Source: a virus
Length of the DNA stretch: 64,000 nt
Virus record (IMG/VR): IMGVR_UViG_3300029454_000001
Coordinates: 14,344-78,343 of that record
Direction: 5' to 3' (one strand)
Shown here: one piece after another, positions 5,609-43,735 of the stretch
How positions within the stretch are numbered: position 1 is the first letter of the stretch
How the letters are laid out: each line of letters starts with the position of its first letter
Notes under the pieces: generated by a model
The model's database searches: none
The model's input: only the letters and a program-made list of their open reading frames with translations
What the model was told of the DNA's origin: nothing
Position numbers and translations under genes: made by a program

Positions 5609-5739
5609 ATAGATAACCTCCGTATTGGTTGTTGGCGTACCATGAACCGCCAGAATCCGTAATTATAAAACAGTGGACAGGCGTATTACGGTTTACGCTT
5701 TTCGGCGGCCAACCTAGCCCACTGGTTTTACCGAATTAA

Positions 5740-13925: not shown

Positions 13926-14441
13926 TTAGGAATAGAATACCTCTTTGGCAATTTTGCGGATATTCTGAATGATTTCTACGCTTGCCTTATACATTGGCAT
14001 TGTAGCTTCTGTACCGTAAGAACGTACCCATTCGCCGGAATCAGAAATATATACCCAGGAATCGTTTTTTCCTTTTCCTTGTCCGTAAGAACCGATTGTA
14101 TAACCAAATTCTTCTCCTTTTGGATGTGGGCTAGAACCGGCTGCACCATTGTGGTAAATACCAGCGCCGAATTCAATGAATAAAATGCTTTTGCCTTCGC
14201 ATATTAAATGGGCTTCTGCATAGTCCCCAAAACTGTTAATTTTGATGTAAGTATTGTGGTTCTTATCAGAATCGCCTTGTGCTGCCAAAATATTTTGGTC
14301 AATAACTGGAATCCCTAATTCACATAATCTTTTTATGAAAATTTCATTTTTGTTCCTTAAAGATTTTTGATAATTTTTTATTTCATCAATAGCTTTTTGG
14401 ATTGATTTCTGTGATAAGGTACACTTTATTGTCTTACCCAT
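13926..14441 (-). CDS. HK97 gp10-like head-tail joining protein
   Basis: FIEFGAGIYH...GTEATMPMYKA pattern; start ATG 14441 overlaps the upstream stop (ATGGGTAA) behind AGAGGAA. Confidence 0.5.
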   Translation of the reverse strand: MGKTIKCTLSQKSIQKAIDEIKNYQKSLRNKNEIFIKRLCELGIPVIDQNILAAQGDSDKNHNTYIKINSFGDYAEAHLICEGKSILFIEFGAGIYHNGAAGSSPHPKGEEFGYTIGSYGQGKGKNDSWVYISDSGEWVRSYGTEATMPMYKASVEIIQNIRKIAKEVFYS

Positions 14442-23986: not shown

Positions 23987-25480
23987 TCATTCTTCGTTAG
24001 ATGGAGAATTTGCCATTGGTTCTGTTTTGGACGGATTTTGAAACTTTCCGTCAAGTAATTGCTGTGCTTTCTGCATTTCCGCTTCCGGGTCTGCCAGTTC
24101 CGGGTAAATAGTTCCCAGATACGGTAAACTCATTTCGTAGACTTTCTGCGGATCACTAAATAAACCGCAAGTAATCAGTGCAATAAGCGGATGAATTTTA
24201 TTTTTAAACAGATAATCAAGTGCCTGTGCTTTTACAAGCATATTGTCTGTTGGGTTTCTGGTTATCTTCACATCGAAATCTCGTGTTGAGATATTAACAT
24301 CATTTGATGTACCACGGATAATATTCAGAATAATTCTGGCAGATTCCTTTTCAGCTTCCTTGGTGAATGCTTCTACCAATTTTGCATCTCTCTCTGCGAA
24401 ATCCCATCCATTACGAAGGTATACGGCATTTCCTGTATCTCCTCCGCTGTTGCTCTGTCGGTTTGGCATTGCTTCCACAATCAGCATGTTATTGTAGATA
24501 TCATCCTTTGCAACCTGGCTCTCTGATTGATTCAGTTCAGCGGTCATCAGTTCAACATCCGACTGACAGCCATTTCCAGTATCTTTTACAGAGATGGCAC
24601 CAAGTTTTACCATTTTCAAAAACTCGTTTTCATCTACCTCGCAGTTCTTGAACTTCATAAAGGCTTGCACAAACTGTTCAACGCCATTTAATCTATCAGA
24701 CTGGTATTTGTTAATTGCATCAAATAAGGTGATTGCAATTTCAACATCTGAAAGCCTGTCATGATTATTCGGGCATTCAACAATAGGAATTCCTCCAAAA
24801 CCGTTGATGCCATATTCGGTTACTTTTCCATTCGTGATTTTGAAAAACTGGTTCTTTGAATAGCATAAGTAGTATTGTTGCTCATCTTCATCCTTCAAAA
24901 TCTGAACGGACAGCATTGGTTTTCCGTTCCTCTGCGAATATACAATGTAACAATCACCAGGATACGGAATGAAGATTCTAAACGGTGGTAAATCTCCGTT
25001 TTTTGTCCAATCCTCTTCTTTCAGTATGGCCTTATAAGAAGTTCCTGTTGCACTTTGGTATATTGCCCTTTGGATGTTTCTTGCATCTGCATTGGCTTCA
25101 TCCAGATAATCATTCAACAAATCAACTTGCTCATTTATTTTTTTGTCTGCATTTTTTTTGCATACATACTGGATTGGTTCTCCACAAATCTGTCCAGCTT
25201 TAAATTTTACAGTTTCAAATGCGTGATTTTCTACCACTCTGTTATTAACTTCTGGACGGACTATTTTATTTCGGTATAATATCGGCTGATCGCCTTTCAT
25301 GTACCGATACAAGTAATCAATCAATGTTCGGTTTCTATTATGTATGCCAATTGTATCTGATACTACTTTTACTACATTTTGTGGAGTGATTCGGTCAACA
25401 CCTGTGTAGGCTACTTTTCGCCCGAACTCACCTCGGCATAAATCTACAAAATTCATTGTGTTTCTCACGAGCCGAACCAT
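23987..25480 (-). CDS. portal protein (SPP1 gp6-like)
   Basis: 497 aa downstream of terL; YLYRYMKGDQPILYRNKIVRPEVNNRVVENHAFE region is typical of this family; exact start uncertain. Confidence 0.8.
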   Translation of the reverse strand: MVRLVRNTMNFVDLCRGEFGRKVAYTGVDRITPQNVVKVVSDTIGIHNRNRTLIDYLYRYMKGDQPILYRNKIVRPEVNNRVVENHAFETVKFKAGQICGEPIQYVCKKNADKKINEQVDLLNDYLDEANADARNIQRAIYQSATGTSYKAILKEEDWTKNGDLPPFRIFIPYPGDCYIVYSQRNGKPMLSVQILKDEDEQQYYLCYSKNQFFKITNGKVTEYGINGFGGIPIVECPNNHDRLSDVEIAITLFDAINKYQSDRLNGVEQFVQAFMKFKNCEVDENEFLKMVKLGAISVKDTGNGCQSDVELMTAELNQSESQVAKDDIYNNMLIVEAMPNRQSNSGGDTGNAVYLRNGWDFAERDAKLVEAFTKEAEKESARIILNIIRGTSNDVNISTRDFDVKITRNPTDNMLVKAQALDYLFKNKIHPLIALITCGLFSDPQKVYEMSLPYLGTIYPELADPEAEMQKAQQLLDGKFQNPSKTEPMANSPSNEE

Positions 25481-31329: not shown

Positions 31330-32781
31330 TCATTCGACAGTAATACAAGCGTATCTTTCTGAATTGATTGTGTTTTCCATAGCTTCAATCGGATTGTATC
31401 CAAGATTCTGTAAGATTTGTTTAAAAACTGTTACAGATTGACCACTTGCAAGTTGTACGCCTTTTCTCTTGGAATCTGCATGGAATACATCATGTCTGCT
31501 GTTTACATTCCAGAAGATAACGTTTGGAATAACATATCCAGATTTATGAAACTTGTTTGCCATCTTATCATAAAATGACCAATCTCGATTTCCACAATAA
31601 TCAATTTCCATATCAGAAATTACGACAATAGCTTTTGGCATTTCTTCCTGTGAAATATTATTTTTTTCTGCGATATCAAGCACCTTTTTAAATGCAGCTT
31701 TAAGGTTTGTACTACCGCCCCAATCTGCCCCTTTAGCATTATTGATTTTCTGTGAAAGGGTTTCACCCTTTAAAACAACTGTTTCTGGATTGCTCGAAAA
31801 TGTCATAAACAAATTGTGGTATGCCCCAACATTTCTTTCGGCAAAGTATATTGCCAATCCGATTGACGTTGCCATTGGTCTTCCGGTCATCGAACCGGAT
31901 ACATCAGCCATAATCAAAGCATTTGTTCCCTGTTCTATGTAATTTGGGAGTGCTTTCCATTGTGCTTCAAGAACTTTATTGTTCTCTCGTCCGTAAATGA
32001 TTTTTTCAACGATGTCATAAGGATACAAAGTTGAAGCGTTGATTTTAACTTCTCCTTTATCAGCCTTATTAATAAAATCATTAAATCCATCTGGATCATG
32101 TTTTGCAAAAGCTCTGCGATAAATCATCATTGCACGGCTCGGAACTTCTGGATATTTAATCTCATTCCATTTACCGGCAGACATAAGGCTTTCAACAACA
32201 CCGATCTGTTTTCTCATACTACGAACAATCCTTTTGAAGTTGTAGACTGGATAACCCAACTTCTGTGCAGTCAAGATTCCTAACTTCCTAGTTTCTCTGC
32301 TACTTGCATCAGCAGTCTTAATCCATTTAGCAAGTAAAGAAATCGCTTTTCCCTCATTAAGATTCTTCAAATCTTCCTCGAACTGAATCTTCATGGTTTT
32401 CCACATATCGTCTTCCATTGGTGTTCCAATCAGTTCATACAGATCATCGTATCTCCCGAATACTCCAATCAAGTCAAGATTCGGTCTAAGTGCTCCTGGA
32501 TGATGTTCAGCCATGTAACGGATAATGGTTCGGAAAGTTTTTCTCTCTCCAAGCCCGTAACGAATATCTCTTGCATAAAAAGCAATCTTTGTGGCAAAGA
32601 GTTTATCCTGTTCAAATGCTTCTGAGAATAAAGTGGTGATTCTATTTTCATCAGCTTCTCTCAATGCGCCAATAGTTCCGAACAGGTCAAGTCTTGCATC
32701 GCTTGTAGTATTCAGCGCAACTGCTCCGTTTTCGGTTCTTGTAAACTTGCTTTCTTCTTTCATTGCATTTGCAAAATCCAT
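31330..32781 (-). CDS. Ro60-like architecture protein: helical N-domain plus MIDAS vWA domain (DUF2828-type)
   Basis: 483 aa; MIDAS residues ADVSGSMTG, GGSTN, VISDMEID; I recognise the N-terminal helical region as DUF2828-like; SD AAAGGAGAA. Confidence 0.6.
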   Translation of the reverse strand: MDFANAMKEESKFTRTENGAVALNTTSDARLDLFGTIGALREADENRITTLFSEAFEQDKLFATKIAFYARDIRYGLGERKTFRTIIRYMAEHHPGALRPNLDLIGVFGRYDDLYELIGTPMEDDMWKTMKIQFEEDLKNLNEGKAISLLAKWIKTADASSRETRKLGILTAQKLGYPVYNFKRIVRSMRKQIGVVESLMSAGKWNEIKYPEVPSRAMMIYRRAFAKHDPDGFNDFINKADKGEVKINASTLYPYDIVEKIIYGRENNKVLEAQWKALPNYIEQGTNALIMADVSGSMTGRPMATSIGLAIYFAERNVGAYHNLFMTFSSNPETVVLKGETLSQKINNAKGADWGGSTNLKAAFKKVLDIAEKNNISQEEMPKAIVVISDMEIDYCGNRDWSFYDKMANKFHKSGYVIPNVIFWNVNSRHDVFHADSKRKGVQLASGQSVTVFKQILQNLGYNPIEAMENTINSERYACITVE

Positions 32782-32934
32782 GTTTCTTCTCCTTTCAGGA
32801 CACGAAAAATATAAAATATACGAATTAGATTTTATTTAAGTGAGTTGCTGTAAGCGTCCCATAAATTTCATGATGCTTTTGTGTTTCATAATTAAAAGTT
32901 ATGCCCAAAATGATTGCTGTAAGCATCACATAAT

Positions 32935-33023
32935 TGCCCCGACAGGATTTGAACCTATAAAATTATTTGCAGTGAAGAACACAAACATGTTCTAATCGGT
33001 TTTCCGTAACCGATAACCGGGGC
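32935..33023 (-). ncRNA. tRNA-like RNA A (89 nt, non-canonical)
   Basis: GCCCCGG acceptor arm, D-like arm ATCGG/CCGAT with a GG loop, T arm ATAGG-TTCAAAT-CCTGT. The anticodon-position hairpin AGAACA-TGTTTG-TGTTCT has a 6- or 8-nt loop. The acceptor plus T stack is one bp short. Confidence 0.45.
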
Positions 33024-33025
33024 AG

Positions 33026-33139
33026 TGACGAGGGATGGGTTCGAACCACCAACCTATGCCTTGTAATGGAGTAAATTGCTGTTATAGTCACAAACATGAC
33101 TAATATTCTCATTGCTCTGTCCAATTGAGCTACCTCGTC
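33026..33139 (-). ncRNA. tRNA-like RNA B (114 nt, extended anticodon-position arm)
   Basis: Canonical GACGAGG/CCTCGTC acceptor, GCTC-AATTGGACA-GAGC D arm and GGTGG-TTCGAAC-CCATC T arm. A 62-nt insert between them ends in hairpin TAGTCA-TGTTTG-TGACTA. It lies 2 nt from RNA A. Confidence 0.45.
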
Positions 33140-33198
33140 TAAAAACCAACAATAGCTATGCTAAAGTCAGATTTCCTATCTACACTTGGTAGATGGAA

Positions 33199-33270
33199 TA
33201 GCAGGAGACGGATTCGAACCGCCGTTTCCATGGATATGAGCCATGTGAGATTCCGCTTCTCTATCCTGCT
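33199..33270 (-). tRNA. tRNA with CAU anticodon (Met-type; could be Ile2)
   Basis: AGCAGGA-TA-GAGA-AGCGGAA-TCTC-A-CATGG-CTCATAT-CCATG-GAAAC-GGCGG-TTCGAAT-CCGTC-TCCTGCT-A. Confidence 0.8.
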
Positions 33271-33429
33271 ATGTACATGTTTGGAAGAACCATTTCAGCA
33301 CGTTCACTTATTGACTACTAGAGGAAGTCACTATATCACCGATAAACAGTACGTATTCGGAACTCGGTTATACATTCCTACGCACTGCTCTGTGCTTTTC
33401 CTACCACCAAACTTTCAGTCTCCAAACAA

Positions 33430-33498
33430 TCGGAAAGGATGGATTCGAACCATCAAGACCTAGTCGACTAGCCCGTTCCCAGTTACTTGCACTTTCCG
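33430..33498 (-). ncRNA. tRNA-like minihelix element D (acceptor plus T arm only)
   Basis: CGGAAAG/CTTTCCG acceptor and GATGG-TTCGAAT-CCATC T arm. The D and anticodon arms are replaced by CAAG...CTTG enclosing the palindrome CTAGTCGACTAG. Confidence 0.4.
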
Positions 33499-33789
33499 AA
33501 TAACCCGGTTCTTCCGGGTTAGCAATAGGTTTATCGTGTTATGCTTTCCACTATCTACAAGTTTTAGTGCTGTAGATTCACTGGATATTTTTATGCGTCT
33601 TAGAACGGCATCTCTTGAAAACTCCTTTTATTAACGTGCGCTGCGTTAATGTTTTTAACTCCGAGACATACCAGCCGGGAAATCAGATCCATTTAAGCTA
33701 CGCCGTATCGCACATAAATTTACCTAATCCACACACTCAACTGGAAGTTTTTTCCACCCATATTACGGATGAATGGCATTTAGAAGAAA

Positions 33790-33862
33790 TGGAAGCTCTG
33801 GGATTCGAACCCAGGACTTACGGCTTATGAGGCCGTTGCTCTTACCGCTGAACTAAGCTTCC
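33790..33862 (-). tRNA. tRNA with CAU anticodon (Met/fMet/Ile2-type)
   Basis: GGAAGCT-TA-GTTC-AGCGGTAA-GAGC-A-ACGGC-CTCATAA-GCCGT-AAGTC-CTGGG-TTCGAAT-CCCAG-AGCTTCC-A. Confidence 0.8.
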
Positions 33863-34011
33863 TGAGATACCAGAAATAAGCCCGCCATAGATTTATTTCT
33901 GGCACTGTTGCAGTTCTTGACCACCAACCGCAACAAAGGTTTTCTGAAACACTTTTAGATTTCAGAAAAGAGTGTTATAAAATGAACTTGCGGCATTAGC
34001 GAAACCGCAAA

Positions 34012-34084
34012 CTGGGCTAACTGGATTCGAACCAGCAAATGCAGCAGTCAAAGTGCTGTGCCTTAACCGTTTGGCGATAGCCCA
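34012..34084 (-). tRNA. tRNA-Gln (UUG)
   Basis: TGGGCTA acceptor with U1-A72 and G73, anticodon arm CAGCA-CTTTGAC-TGCTG, T arm GCTGG-TTCGAAT-CCAGT. Confidence 0.8.
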
Positions 34085-34300
34085 TCAACCCCGGCGCACC
34101 ATTAAAACCGGGGAAGTCGTGATATTAAGCTAAACAAGTATATAAAATAAGAGTTTCCGCTACTCTGGATGCCTCGACTTATCACTTTCATAGGCTTTCC
34201 CGAGCCTACATGGATTAAGTCGAAGCTGCGCTTTTATGAATTTAACCCTTTCGATTAACTCGATCGGGATAATTCCAATTGGAATCGGTAAATACATTTG

Positions 34301-34477
34301 TCACCTCGTGCAAATTAAGAAAATATTCAGTGCAAAACATATTTCTAAACAAATACAGAATAAAATCTGTATTACGCTTGTCTTTCCTTCTTCGTTCAGT
34401 ATTGCTAAAGTGCCAGCTAGAACCAGAACAAAAAATGCAAGATTTACAGCTGTTCCAATTACATTAAGTGCATTCAT
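34301..34477 (-). CDS. small membrane protein (58 aa, below the ORF-track cutoff)
   Basis: MNALNVIGTAVNLAFFVLVLAGTLAIL...; SD GGGAGGA 8 nt upstream of ATG 34477. Confidence 0.4.
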   Translation of the reverse strand: MNALNVIGTAVNLAFFVLVLAGTLAILNEEGKTSVIQILFCICLEICFALNIFLICTR

Positions 34478-41941: not shown

Positions 41942-43654
41942 TTATAGTGCTAAAAGGTACTTATATTTGAAAAATACCATATCTTGTGTCTTAATGCAAG
42001 TTTTCCTACTAAATATCTTGTGTTGTTCTGAATGTAGAGTAAAAATCATATCGTCAGAACGGCGCAAGGGAAACCCCCATTTTTCAAGGCTTCCAGACCT
42101 CAATTGAAATGTCAGTGTTGCACATGTAACCGCCAACGGTTCAACGGTAATCTTCTCAAAAAGTTCATTAACAATCTGCCTGTTAATGTCTTTTTGAGTA
42201 ACGCCTTTGAACTTTTTTAACTGCTCTTTAATAGCATTTAATTGTATTTCTACTGGTTCTGGACTTTTGGTGTTTTGTAGCTCTCGAATATGGCTCTCTG
42301 TCTGTTTTATCTGTTTTACATATTCTTTGTTTCTTGAAACAAATTCATCATCAGATATTTTGCCATCCAGATTATATTCCAGTATTTTTTCACGCTTTTG
42401 TTTTAACAGGTCGATCTGTTTTTCAAGTCTCGTGATTTCGTTTATATTGTCTGGAATGTTTTTAATTGAGGACTGTAAAATTTCAAAATATTCCTCCAAA
42501 ATGCTGTCAATATTTTCAGAAGATTTATTAATCAATTCTGCAATTACTTCTTTTAGCTCTGATTCTGCCAGCCCGAACGAATTGCAAGAAGCTGCTCCAT
42601 TTTTTATTTTATAGCTGCATACCCATCGAACATCTTCTTTTCCTCTGATGTAATGTTGCTTCATCCAGTATGGCGCTCCGTCATTTGCGCAGAAAAGTTT
42701 TCCGGTGAAAATATTTTCATTCTTAAAAGACGTTCTTCTCGATTTTATAGCTTCTCCTCGTTCTCTTAAATATGCATTTGCCTTTTCCCAAGTGGCCTCG
42801 TCAATGATCTGCGGCACTCTGGAGCCATCATCTTTAAACATTACCCATTCTGACTGCGGAAGAAATTCTTGTTTCTTGGTGAACATATCGACAACCTTTA
42901 CTTTTCCTCCACAATAGTATCCTTTGTATTTTGGATTCCGAATAATATTTTTTATGACATCCCGGTTGATTTTCCCACCTTTGAAACTTCTGTATCCCAT
43001 ATCCCAGAGTTTTTTTTCTATTCTTGGCGTAGATATTCCGGAAGCGTAATCTTGAAAAATCATTCGAACCATGTCCGCTTCTTCTGGAACCAGTTCGAGT
43101 TTTCCTTGATTGTTTGAGTATCCATACATTCTGTGCCCGAGAACAACACCATTTTTGATTGACTGTGCGTGTCCAAATTTTACTCTTGAAGAAAGCTTGC
43201 GGATTTCGTCCTGCGCTACCCCAGCCATAATAGTAAGTCTGAACTCACTATCATCATCAATAGTGTTAATTCCATCATTTTGGAACCACACGCATACGCC
43301 GTAAGATAACAATTCCCTGGTATATTGGATGCTGTCAAGAGTATTTCGCGCAAATCTTGAAATTTCTTTCGTAATAATCATGTCAATTTTTCCGAGCTTT
43401 GCATCTCTGAGCATTCTTTGAAATTCTTCTCTTTTATCCGCATGTATTCCAGAAATACCATCATCAATGTAAGAACCAGCAAACTTCCATCTGTTGTTAG
43501 AATGTATCAGCTCTTCAAAATGTTCCTCCTGGTGCTTAATGGATGCTTGCTGTTCAACTTTTTCAGTAGAAACCCTGGCATAATAAGCAACATTTAGTTC
43601 AATGTCGTAAATAGAGCAATTTCTTAATTTTTCTCTGACATAATAAATATTCAT
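41942..43654 (-). CDS. large serine recombinase (integrase)
   Basis: VAYYARVSTEKVEQQ catalytic motif, recombinase domain, zinc ribbon (CANDG..WVCSYKIKNGAASC), coiled coil; start ATG 43654 behind AAGGGAGAA. Confidence 0.9.
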   Translation of the reverse strand: MNIYYVREKLRNCSIYDIELNVAYYARVSTEKVEQQASIKHQEEHFEELIHSNNRWKFAGSYIDDGISGIHADKREEFQRMLRDAKLGKIDMIITKEISRFARNTLDSIQYTRELLSYGVCVWFQNDGINTIDDDSEFRLTIMAGVAQDEIRKLSSRVKFGHAQSIKNGVVLGHRMYGYSNNQGKLELVPEEADMVRMIFQDYASGISTPRIEKKLWDMGYRSFKGGKINRDVIKNIIRNPKYKGYYCGGKVKVVDMFTKKQEFLPQSEWVMFKDDGSRVPQIIDEATWEKANAYLRERGEAIKSRRTSFKNENIFTGKLFCANDGAPYWMKQHYIRGKEDVRWVCSYKIKNGAASCNSFGLAESELKEVIAELINKSSENIDSILEEYFEILQSSIKNIPDNINEITRLEKQIDLLKQKREKILEYNLDGKISDDEFVSRNKEYVKQIKQTESHIRELQNTKSPEPVEIQLNAIKEQLKKFKGVTQKDINRQIVNELFEKITVEPLAVTCATLTFQLRSGSLEKWGFPLRRSDDMIFTLHSEQHKIFSRKTCIKTQDMVFFKYKYLLAL

Positions 43655-43735
43655 AGTGCATTTCTCCCTTAATAAACAGGGAGTGGAATCATATAAAGTA
43701 TAACACCTCATATAACTCCACTCAATACATTTTCG

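Follow-up and report, generated by a model that had tools for sequence, protein, structure and literature searches.

A phage tRNA island with two structured RNA families and a tRNA-like element between two tRNA-Met genes

The 64,000-nucleotide (nt) window analyzed here (positions 14,344 to 78,343 of IMG/VR record IMGVR_UViG_3300029454_000001) is DNA of an uncultured human-gut phage. It carries genes for an SPP1-type portal protein (23987-25480), with distant kinship to the portals of Firmicutes phages, and for a serine recombinase (41942-43711), and nearly all of its genes lie on the minus strand. Among the phage records of GenBank, its close DNA relatives are exclusively unannotated "Bacteriophage sp." contigs from human faeces. 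The subject of this work is a 519-nt stretch (33271-33789) located between two tRNA-Met(CAU) genes, Met1 and Met2, in an island of tRNA and tRNA-like genes that also contains the gene for a 483-amino acid (aa) protein resembling Ro60 (Table 1). A preliminary description of this DNA had proposed that the stretch specifies one large ornate RNA, possibly of the ROOL or GOLLD class, with a tRNA minihelix embedded in it. Comparison with related loci leads to a different view, in that the 519 nt are three independently inherited minus-strand modules, here called B, TL and A1, and not a single RNA. On the minus strand the order is tRNA-Met1, B, TL, A1, tRNA-Met2.

Several elements of the preliminary description did hold. 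The setting is indeed a phage tRNA island, with a tRNA array and phage genes as for ROOL and GOLLD, and the stretch is non-coding and structured, its structure being supported by comparison with relatives. No credible open reading frame (ORF) lies between the two CAU tRNAs, as the only ORFs of at least 40 aa are two on the plus strand (33158..33463, 101 aa; 33615..33830, 71 aa), both of which overlap tRNA sequence. Coding potential within B was also considered and rejected: an AGGAG followed by AUG and two codons is present in the window copy only, a conserved start is absent, and insertions and deletions among relatives do not come in multiples of three.

Table 1. Features of the tRNA island in the order of minus-strand transcription, with the helices of module B.
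Feature	Position	Strand	Evidence or remark
tRNA-Gln	34084-34012	minus	First in the transcription order of the island
tRNA-Met(CAU), Met1	33790..33862	minus	ARAGORN; Rfam 71.5 bits
Module B, multi-pseudoknotted non-coding RNA	33502..33789	minus	288 nt; comparative evidence
B, helix P0	33786-33782 (CUUCU) / 33626-33622 (AGGAG); span 33622..33786	minus	Stacked-helix scan
B, helix P1, hairpin CCAUUC/GGGUGG with conserved loop AUCCGU	33754..33776	minus	7/8 pairs compensatory
B, long arm P2-P3-P4, loop AUACGG	33671..33744	minus	16/17 pairs compensatory
B, P2	33744-39/33676-71	minus	
B, P3	33730-24/33686-80	minus	
B, P4	33712-09/33702-699	minus	
B, helix P5	33669-63/33614-08; span 33608..33669	minus	7/7 pairs compensatory
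B, P6, loop CAGCGCA	33650-44/33636-30	minus	Compensatory variants
B, 3' H-type pseudoknot	33553..33582	minus	Fixed-register pair counts
B, 3' module	33502..33553	minus	Near-invariant block UAGUGGAAAGCAUAACACGAUAAACCUAUUGCU (33553-33521) and hairpin P8 (33520-14/33508-02)
Module TL, degenerate tRNA-like element	33430..33498	minus	69 nt; sequence and Rfam tRNA alignment
Module A1, structured RNA	33272..33429	minus	158 nt; fills the TL-Met2 space exactly
tRNA-Met(CAU), Met2, initiator-like	33198..33271	minus	ARAGORN; Rfam 58.7 bits
Rfam tRNA with long insert	33139-33026	minus	After Met2
Odd tRNA-like gene	33024-32934	minus	91 nt; after the insert-bearing tRNA
483-aa gene	32781-31330	minus	After the 91-nt tRNA-like gene
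tRNA-Ser		minus	Last listed in the island, after the 483-aa gene

Three modules between two tRNA genes

Through the neighbouring 483-aa protein we retrieved 80 IMG/VR loci (designated by L numbers) and mapped the segments of the window onto each of them. B follows Met1, at 67-100% identity, in all relatives with a Gln-Met1 pair. TL and A1 are found together in just three of the Gln-Met1 loci, while A1 without TL occurs in other loci after a genuine tRNA-Tyr, and TL without A1 in L043 and L044. Most relatives carry tRNA-Tyr(GUA), tRNA-Met or tRNA-Arg in the slot that follows B, and in L001, where TL and A1 are absent, B is reached directly from a tRNA. In L002, A1 is 97% identical to the window copy even though the tRNA-like element that precedes it is a different sequence, and it is better conserved than the adjacent tRNA (86%). 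Because the three parts are distributed independently among relatives, the 519 nt have to be regarded as three units.

The boundaries of these units are tight. B starts directly after the discriminator base of tRNA-Met(CAU) in 140 of 141 unique contexts and ends 2-5 nt ahead of the next tRNA wherever ARAGORN calls one; overall, tRNA or tRNA-like elements bracket the modules, abutting them directly (0 nt) at the 5' side and standing 2-5 nt away at the 3' side. The 5' end of Met2, as mapped in relatives, lies at most a few nt from the 3' end of A1.

TL, the element that the preliminary description took for a minihelix, does have a perfect 7-base pair (bp) acceptor stem (CGGAAAG/CUUUCCG) and a T arm (GAUGG-UUCGAAU-CCAUC), as had been noted. 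No D stem can be aligned to the tRNA model and no 7-nt anticodon loop is present, the anticodon arm having collapsed to CUAGU-CG-ACUAG within the palindrome CUAGUCGACUAG. With the Rfam tRNA model (RF00005) TL reaches 27.1 bits, slightly less than the gathering score of 29 bits, and a default run of ARAGORN leaves it uncalled. Its relatives are 72 nt long and have an anticodon arm (CCUGG-UCAUAGA/UCGUAGA-CUAGG) that would present the anticodons AUA or GUA; they too score below the tRNA gathering threshold, because the D stem is missing. The window copy, of which identical copies exist in at least seven contigs, lacks three nt, including the anticodon, relative to these elements. TL is thus a decayed tRNA-like gene and not a sub-domain of a large RNA. 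An intron-mode ARAGORN prediction that joins it into a tRNA-Ile(GAU) with a 251-nt intron (33767-33430) was discarded, as it carries three acceptor mismatches against the perfect stem of TL alone.

Further tRNA-like genes that depart from the canonical form occupy the slot after B in L084 (9860-9932, minus strand), L002, L060 and L003. One of them reads GUGGAAUGU...GGUUCGAUUCCGGGCGUUCCAC, and neither ARAGORN nor Rfam calls any of them.

Structure and distribution of B and A1

Across all loci, B is represented by 113 unique sequences of 282-374 nt. A 22-nt search pattern taken from its invariant block matched at least 119 IMG/VR contigs; applied to one genome per species (185,579 bacterial and archaeal genomes), the same pattern gave a single chance match. 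This match was rejected as a host-chromosome homologue, given that it lies at the end of a protein-coding ORF in a metagenome-assembled genome of the Desulfomonilaceae.

When the 288 nt of the window copy are folded as a single sequence the result is unremarkable (z = -1.5), and the case for a B structure rests therefore on comparison with relatives. Clustering at 93% identity yielded 21 clusters, 48-80% identical to the window copy, of which 20 were aligned, the remaining one being cut at the end of its locus. RNAalifold on these 20 representatives gave 43 pairs, 31 of them compensatory. Helix P0 was found by our own stacked-helix scan, which was used in place of an all-against-all covariation scan that proved too noisy with about 13 effective sequences, and was added to the RNAalifold set; counts were then made on this alignment (A3). 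The helices form a standard pair in 92.1% of cells, compared to 32-44% in slid controls in which the 3' partner is moved by 1-3 columns, and 35 of 48 pairs are altered on both sides. None of 500 shuffles reached the observed value, but this statistic overstates the significance because the independent B lineages are few, a bias from which the slid controls are free. G-U pairs in several helices assign the structure to the minus-strand RNA.

About ten helices and two pseudoknots make up the B structure. The first pseudoknot arises where P0, in which four of the five pairs are changed on both sides and 85% of cells are paired, crosses P5. P5 in turn encloses a Shine-Dalgarno-like AGGAGUUUUCAAGA motif and the hairpin P6, which exists in at least eight distinct compensatory stems around a conserved AGCGCA-type loop. 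P6 corresponds to one of three hairpins that had been picked out by eye (TTAACG/CGTTAA, 33631-33649). Another, at 33502-33520, is P8, which is likewise real and conserved, with one compensatory variant (CCGGC/GCCGG, in L042 and L056) and a loop whose length varies freely. For the third (CTACA/TGTAG, 33555-33575) the pairing was right, but it does not form a plain hairpin, being stem 2 of the H-type pseudoknot near the 3' end of B. There, the stem P7 (AGUG/CACU, 33582-79/33569-66) presents the loop AUCUACA (33577-71), which pairs across an A-rich connecting loop with UGUAGAU (33559-53), just before the invariant block. Because MAFFT misaligned this pseudoknot and P6, counts were made in fixed register or anchored on the loop. 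Over 24 unique sequences in fixed register the pseudoknot core is canonical in 115 of 120 cells, against 24-53 of 120 when slid, and every pair occurs as two to four Watson-Crick or wobble types. The last 52 nt of B consist of the 33-nt block, nearly invariant in more than 100 unique sequences, and P8.

P8 was also evaluated as a terminator or promoter and rejected, as a U-tract and a conserved -10 element are absent and the signal scan is empty. Two possible pairings of the invariant block, one with A1 (CGAUAAAC/GUUUAUCG) and the other with a motif of the tRNA insert described further below (AUUGCU/AGCAAU), are short and were judged to be compatible with chance.

In a different phage group of ~45 kb, the 3' block and P8 are found alone, immediately ahead of tRNA-Tyr and with the 5' domain missing. 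Since the 3' module can occur by itself in this way, B looks like a conserved 3' core to which an ornate 5' domain was added. In this group (L204, L213 and L214), it is the intergenic leader preceding a tRNA-Tyr-A1-tRNA-Met arrangement that ends in the 3' block and P8 of B; the leader contains a further conserved region, in which GGAGGU and ACCUCC pair over a long range and a hairpin covaries, and it may be another leader RNA.

A1 has a closing stem (UGUUUGGA/UCCAAACA) and a second stem (GAGACU/AGUC); a variable inner arm is followed by a hairpin (GAAC..GUUC). Twelve variants from the first loci gave 39 pairs with RNAalifold, 9 of them compensatory, so that both B and A1 obtain compensatory support when covariation is checked on homologous loci. 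The A1 16-mer GTAGTCAATAAGTGAA is present in at least 70 IMG/VR contigs, and the usual context is a tRNA-Tyr (or TL) upstream and a tRNA-Met, -Arg, -Asp or -Thr downstream, with the spacer filled almost exactly. Distant members of ~280-360 nt in unrelated phage contigs (L205, L226, L233, L245) retain the 5' core GGCGACUGAAAGUUUGG and the 3' core AGUAGUCAAUAAGUGAACGUGC...AUGGUUCUGCC; among these the closing stem covaries (GGA/UCC, GGC/GCC, GGU/ACC), and so does the next stem (GACU/AGUC vs. GCCU/AGGC). As judged from these sequence comparisons, A1 is a second real RNA family, in which a three-way core is conserved and the inserted domain varies.

A1 also has a string, CUCUAGUAG.CAAU...CGUGCU.AAAU, in common with the T4 td group I intron, whose sequence we verified. 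The idea that A1 is a td-like group I intron was nonetheless rejected, as the structural mapping fails and the common string forms a long-range pairing with the 5' end. In A1 the GUAGUC segment pairs with the 5' GACUG, and the two covary (GCCUG/GUAGGC), whereas the td counterpart of this segment belongs to a local hairpin. No evidence was found that A1 and B are gene-interrupting introns, as their flanks are complete tRNAs or tRNA-like elements and not exons.

Neither module could be linked to a known RNA class. With Rfam 15 at gathering thresholds, the whole window yielded tRNAs and an int-alpA RNA elsewhere, and nothing on the stretch; at E<=10 over 32700-34400 (1.7 kb) nothing credible overlapped the stretch, nor did A1 alone or B alone, searched with the laxest filters at E<=10, match any Rfam model. 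The models silent on the stretch include those for ROOL (RF03087), GOLLD (RF01998) and every other large RNA, for group I introns, T-box, Y RNA and self-cleaving ribozymes, as well as preQ1 and the other riboswitches in the case of B and rtT (RF00391) in the case of A1. The proposed membership in ROOL or GOLLD can therefore not be upheld. For group I introns this silence carries a limit, because the Rfam 15 Intron_gpI model at E<=0.1 also misses a T4-type td intron with a homing-endonuclease ORF (L203, Escherichia phage Pu-Krd-SF4) and is thus uninformative on a relationship to phage-type group I introns. A full-text literature search retrieved no description of B or A1. A large IMG/VR screen reported 8,495 candidate motifs of 29-151 nt only (PMC10690425), which might include fragments of B or A1. 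By every available test, B and A1 appear unrelated to known RNA classes, and they are absent from Rfam 15; what is already known is the general kind, namely ornate non-coding RNAs in phage tRNA islands.

Probable processing, possible function and competing explanations

The modularity of the stretch, the conservation of its parts, their secondary structure with pseudoknots and their tight abutment to tRNAs are direct observations. The interpretation that we favor, and that we consider reasonably likely, is that B and A1 are structured RNAs that act in trans and that RNase Z and RNase P set free at the tRNA punctuation around them. Punctuation by tRNAs is an established principle of RNA processing. 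In the case at hand, the whole tRNA island would be transcribed as a single precursor; a scan for promoter-like or terminator-like signals inside the island returned none above chance. In each upstream tRNA or tRNA-like element, RNase Z of the host, or 3' trimming, would then cut behind the discriminator base, and RNase P would cut at position +1 of each downstream one, so that B and A1 would be freed as discrete RNAs with defined ends. These new ends might be shielded by P8 in B and by the end-to-end closing stem in A1. TL would serve as the punctuation between the two. An acceptor stem and a T arm are the minimal determinant for both RNase P and RNase Z, and in our reading TL is a tRNA-like punctuation mark in the course of losing its decoding role. 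Cleavage by RNase P has been reported for a tRNA-like Y RNA with a 7-bp acceptor stem (Chen et al. 2014, PMC4201824).

Once released, B and A1 would probably work in trans, as folded RNAs, in the course of infection. Among the specific ideas on what they might do, the most plausible to us are a scaffold or decoy for proteins, or else an RNA-only assembly in the manner of ROOL and GOLLD. A broader proposal, which we advance tentatively and with somewhat more doubt than conviction, is that B founds a new mid-sized (~290-370 nt), multi-pseudoknotted "ornate" class among human-gut phages of an abundant group, that A1 founds a second, more widespread class, both with the flanking tRNAs as processing signals, and that these RNAs, be they ribozymes, RNA-only assemblies or ribonucleoprotein cores, would manipulate host translation or RNA metabolism in trans during infection.

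Partial precedents exist. The T4 "species 1 and 2" RNAs (rnaC and rnaD), of ~120-140 nt, are stable non-tRNA RNAs encoded among phage tRNA genes, co-transcribed with them and matured by the tRNA machinery; the likeness to B and A1 is drawn from this general description, and B and A1 belong to gut phages with Firmicutes-phage-like genes. The rtT RNA of the E. coli tyrT operon is a small RNA freed by processing of a tRNA-Tyr transcript, and A1 likewise usually follows tRNA-Tyr; unlike rtT, however, A1 is phage-encoded, has another conserved core and is followed by another tRNA. Processing signals that resemble tRNAs are represented by the t-elements of plant mitochondria, the mascRNA of MALAT1 and mitochondrial tRNA punctuation. 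TL compares with these in that it keeps the acceptor stem and T arm and sits between two other RNAs, but it is a recent derivative of a 72-nt tRNA-like gene rather than an old dedicated signal, and its cleavage is putative. ROOL and GOLLD, finally, are encoded by phages and prophages, often beside tRNA islands, and have no ORF, multiple pseudoknots and no known partner or function (PMC12286853). B shares with them a covariation-supported, multi-pseudoknotted structure and the location within a phage tRNA island. It differs by the lack of covariance-model similarity at E<=10, by its length of 282-374 nt compared to ~580 nt for ROOL and >800 nt for GOLLD, and by being precisely bracketed by tRNAs. 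Its resemblance to the two classes is one of setting only.

A number of points weigh against the interpretation of B and A1 as processed, trans-acting RNAs. Processing and stability of the modules are deduced from geometry only; the B lineages that are effectively independent number ~13 (at 90% identity); 51 of the 73 B loci with enough downstream sequence have no Ro60-like gene nearby; and the palindromic stem of P8 may be a site of dyad-symmetric protein-DNA binding. In addition, the occurrence of the near-invariant 3' block and P8 alone ahead of tRNA-Tyr in another phage group would also fit a role in cis for the downstream tRNA, or a role at the DNA level. The main rival explanation, which we regard as unlikely yet worth serious attention, follows from this last point: B, or its 3' block with P8, would be a cis-acting leader of the next tRNA, such as an attenuator, a riboswitch-like sensor or a guide for processing or folding. 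That P8 always ends 2-5 nt ahead of the next tRNA speaks for a leader, and the order of the B domains, in which the long arm is followed by a second domain, the H-type pseudoknot, a conserved single strand and the terminal hairpin, may loosely recall T-box or pseudoknot riboswitch leaders. The downstream gene, however, varies (Tyr, Met, Arg or tRNA-like) while B is constant, the length of the P8 loop is unconstrained, most P8 variants are without a U-tract (UUCC, UUAU) and the terminator scan is empty at P8; the T-box, preQ1 and other riboswitch models are, as said, unmatched.

The remaining alternatives all appear to be improbable. That A1, B or both are ribozymes, either derived from group I introns or of a new self-cleaving or tRNA-processing class that matures the neighbouring tRNAs, is suggested by the layout of A1, where a conserved junction core with a freely variable insert is typical of small ribozymes, by the string shared with td, on which the silence of Rfam is no guide, and by the fact that both modules end a few nt from the 5' end of a tRNA. 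We consider this quite improbable, as A1 and B are flanked by complete tRNAs instead of exons, the GUAGUC segment of A1 is engaged in the covarying long-range pairing with the 5' GACUG, and models of known self-cleaving ribozymes match neither A1 nor B. At 158 nt, A1 is also below the size of any group I core known to us. A decaying spacer, made of dead tRNA remnants and recombination scars, is still less probable. It would account for the degenerate TL with its lost anticodon, for the mosaic island with its frequent cassette swaps and for the unexceptional single-sequence fold energy of B; but dozens of compensatory substitutions preserve the helices of B and A1 at 48-80% identity, the 33-nt block of B is nearly invariant, and A1 in L002 is more conserved than its neighbouring tRNA. 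Decay holds for TL only, and covariation contradicts it for B and A1. Least credible of all is the reading from which the preliminary description started, namely a single ornate RNA that belongs to the ROOL or GOLLD class and encloses a tRNA minihelix. An ORF-free stretch with many hairpins and pseudoknots in a phage tRNA island is what has been described for these classes (PMC12286853). The conserved unit, however, is 288 nt against ~580 nt or >800 nt, the three parts are independent in relatives, TL is bounded like a tRNA gene and replaced by a true tRNA-Tyr, -Met or -Arg in most of them, and the large-RNA models, silent both at gathering thresholds and at E<=10, refute family membership.

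RNAs of the ROOL and GOLLD sort in phage tRNA islands are a long-standing puzzle with few known classes, to which this locus adds two covariation-supported families from very common human-gut phages. With more than 100 unique sequences of B and dozens of A1, there is enough material for R-scape-grade modelling, chemical probing and cryo-electron microscopy. The locus also suggests a rule of production, in which a tRNA or a minimal tRNA-like "punctuation" would stand on both sides of such RNAs, and this rule could guide the search for non-coding RNAs hidden in the tRNA islands of other phages.

The remainder of the island and the Ro60-like protein

Decayed or unusual tRNAs seem to be abundant in this island. 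A weak or mismatched 1:72 pair is the hallmark of bacterial initiator tRNAs, and this position is A-U in the window copy of Met2 and C x A in L002 and other relatives. The 149-nt spacer between tRNA-Gln and Met1 (33863-34011, minus strand) is 82-99% conserved across many relatives.

Beyond Met2, the insert-bearing gene at 33026-33139 is a tRNA-Val(UAC) (Rfam 46.7 bits) interrupted in the 5' strand of its anticodon stem. It reads AUG, an insert of ~40 nt, then CC-AUUACAA-GGCAU, and a perfect 5-bp stem forms once the insert is removed; relatives have GUA, the insert and CC-AUUACAA-GGUAC, which is a compensatory change. The insert consists of a hairpin (AGUCA-UGUUUG-UGACU) followed by ACAGCAAU. 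We know of no description of short inserts other than group I introns in bacterial or phage tRNA genes. The next gene, of 91 nt, combines an acceptor stem and a T arm with a D stem of 5 bp, its anticodon arm being replaced by the same module found in the tRNA-Val insert (AGAACA-UGUUUG-UGUUCU and CACUGCAAAU), and most loci retain it immediately ahead of the 483-aa gene.

The 483-aa protein contains DUF2828, DUF7788 and VWA domains, matches the "RNA-binding protein" family PHROG 850 (E 8e-137) and belongs to a family of 6,553 representatives at 50% identity. Its AlphaFold model is weak, with a predicted local distance difference test (pLDDT) score of 62; in a Foldseek comparison, the best and only full-length structural matches of this pLDDT-62 model in the PDB are Ro60/Rsr (1yvp_B, E 5.6e-6; 2nvo, 1.8e-5), while the sequence profile of the protein matched only the VWA domain in the PDB. 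An obligate partnership of B with this Ro60-like protein was rejected, in view of the B loci without the gene mentioned above and of L073-L082, which have the gene without B.

Bacterial Y RNAs (YrlA/YrlB) are tRNA-like, have their genes just ahead of that for a Ro60-type protein and arise by processing of a single precursor (PMC4201824). Our island similarly ends in a DUF2828-VWA protein whose structural matches, from a weak model, are Ro60/Rsr, and the 483-aa gene, closely preceded by two tRNA-like genes that bear the insert module, is reminiscent of an Rsr-Y RNA locus. The Ro60-like protein (on the same low-confidence model) is encoded ~650 nt downstream. The stretch differs in that the Y_RNA and YrlA models find no match and in that B mostly occurs without such a protein; the likelier Y-like candidates are the two tRNA-like genes with the insert module and not B, TL or A1. 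These tRNA genes that share a 40-nt insert beside a Ro60-like protein offer a second testable lead on phage RNA biology. In L073-L082 (for instance L076, 2924-3249), more distant phages with the same protein and no B, three to five more tRNA-like genes bear the hairpin and ACAGCAAU; in one of them, a tRNA-Thr(GGU)-like gene, the insert lies between the D arm and the anticodon stem. Elsewhere in the window, the int-alpA RNA motif (RF02996) is found at 5657-5724 on the minus strand, with 49 bits against a gathering score of 35.8.

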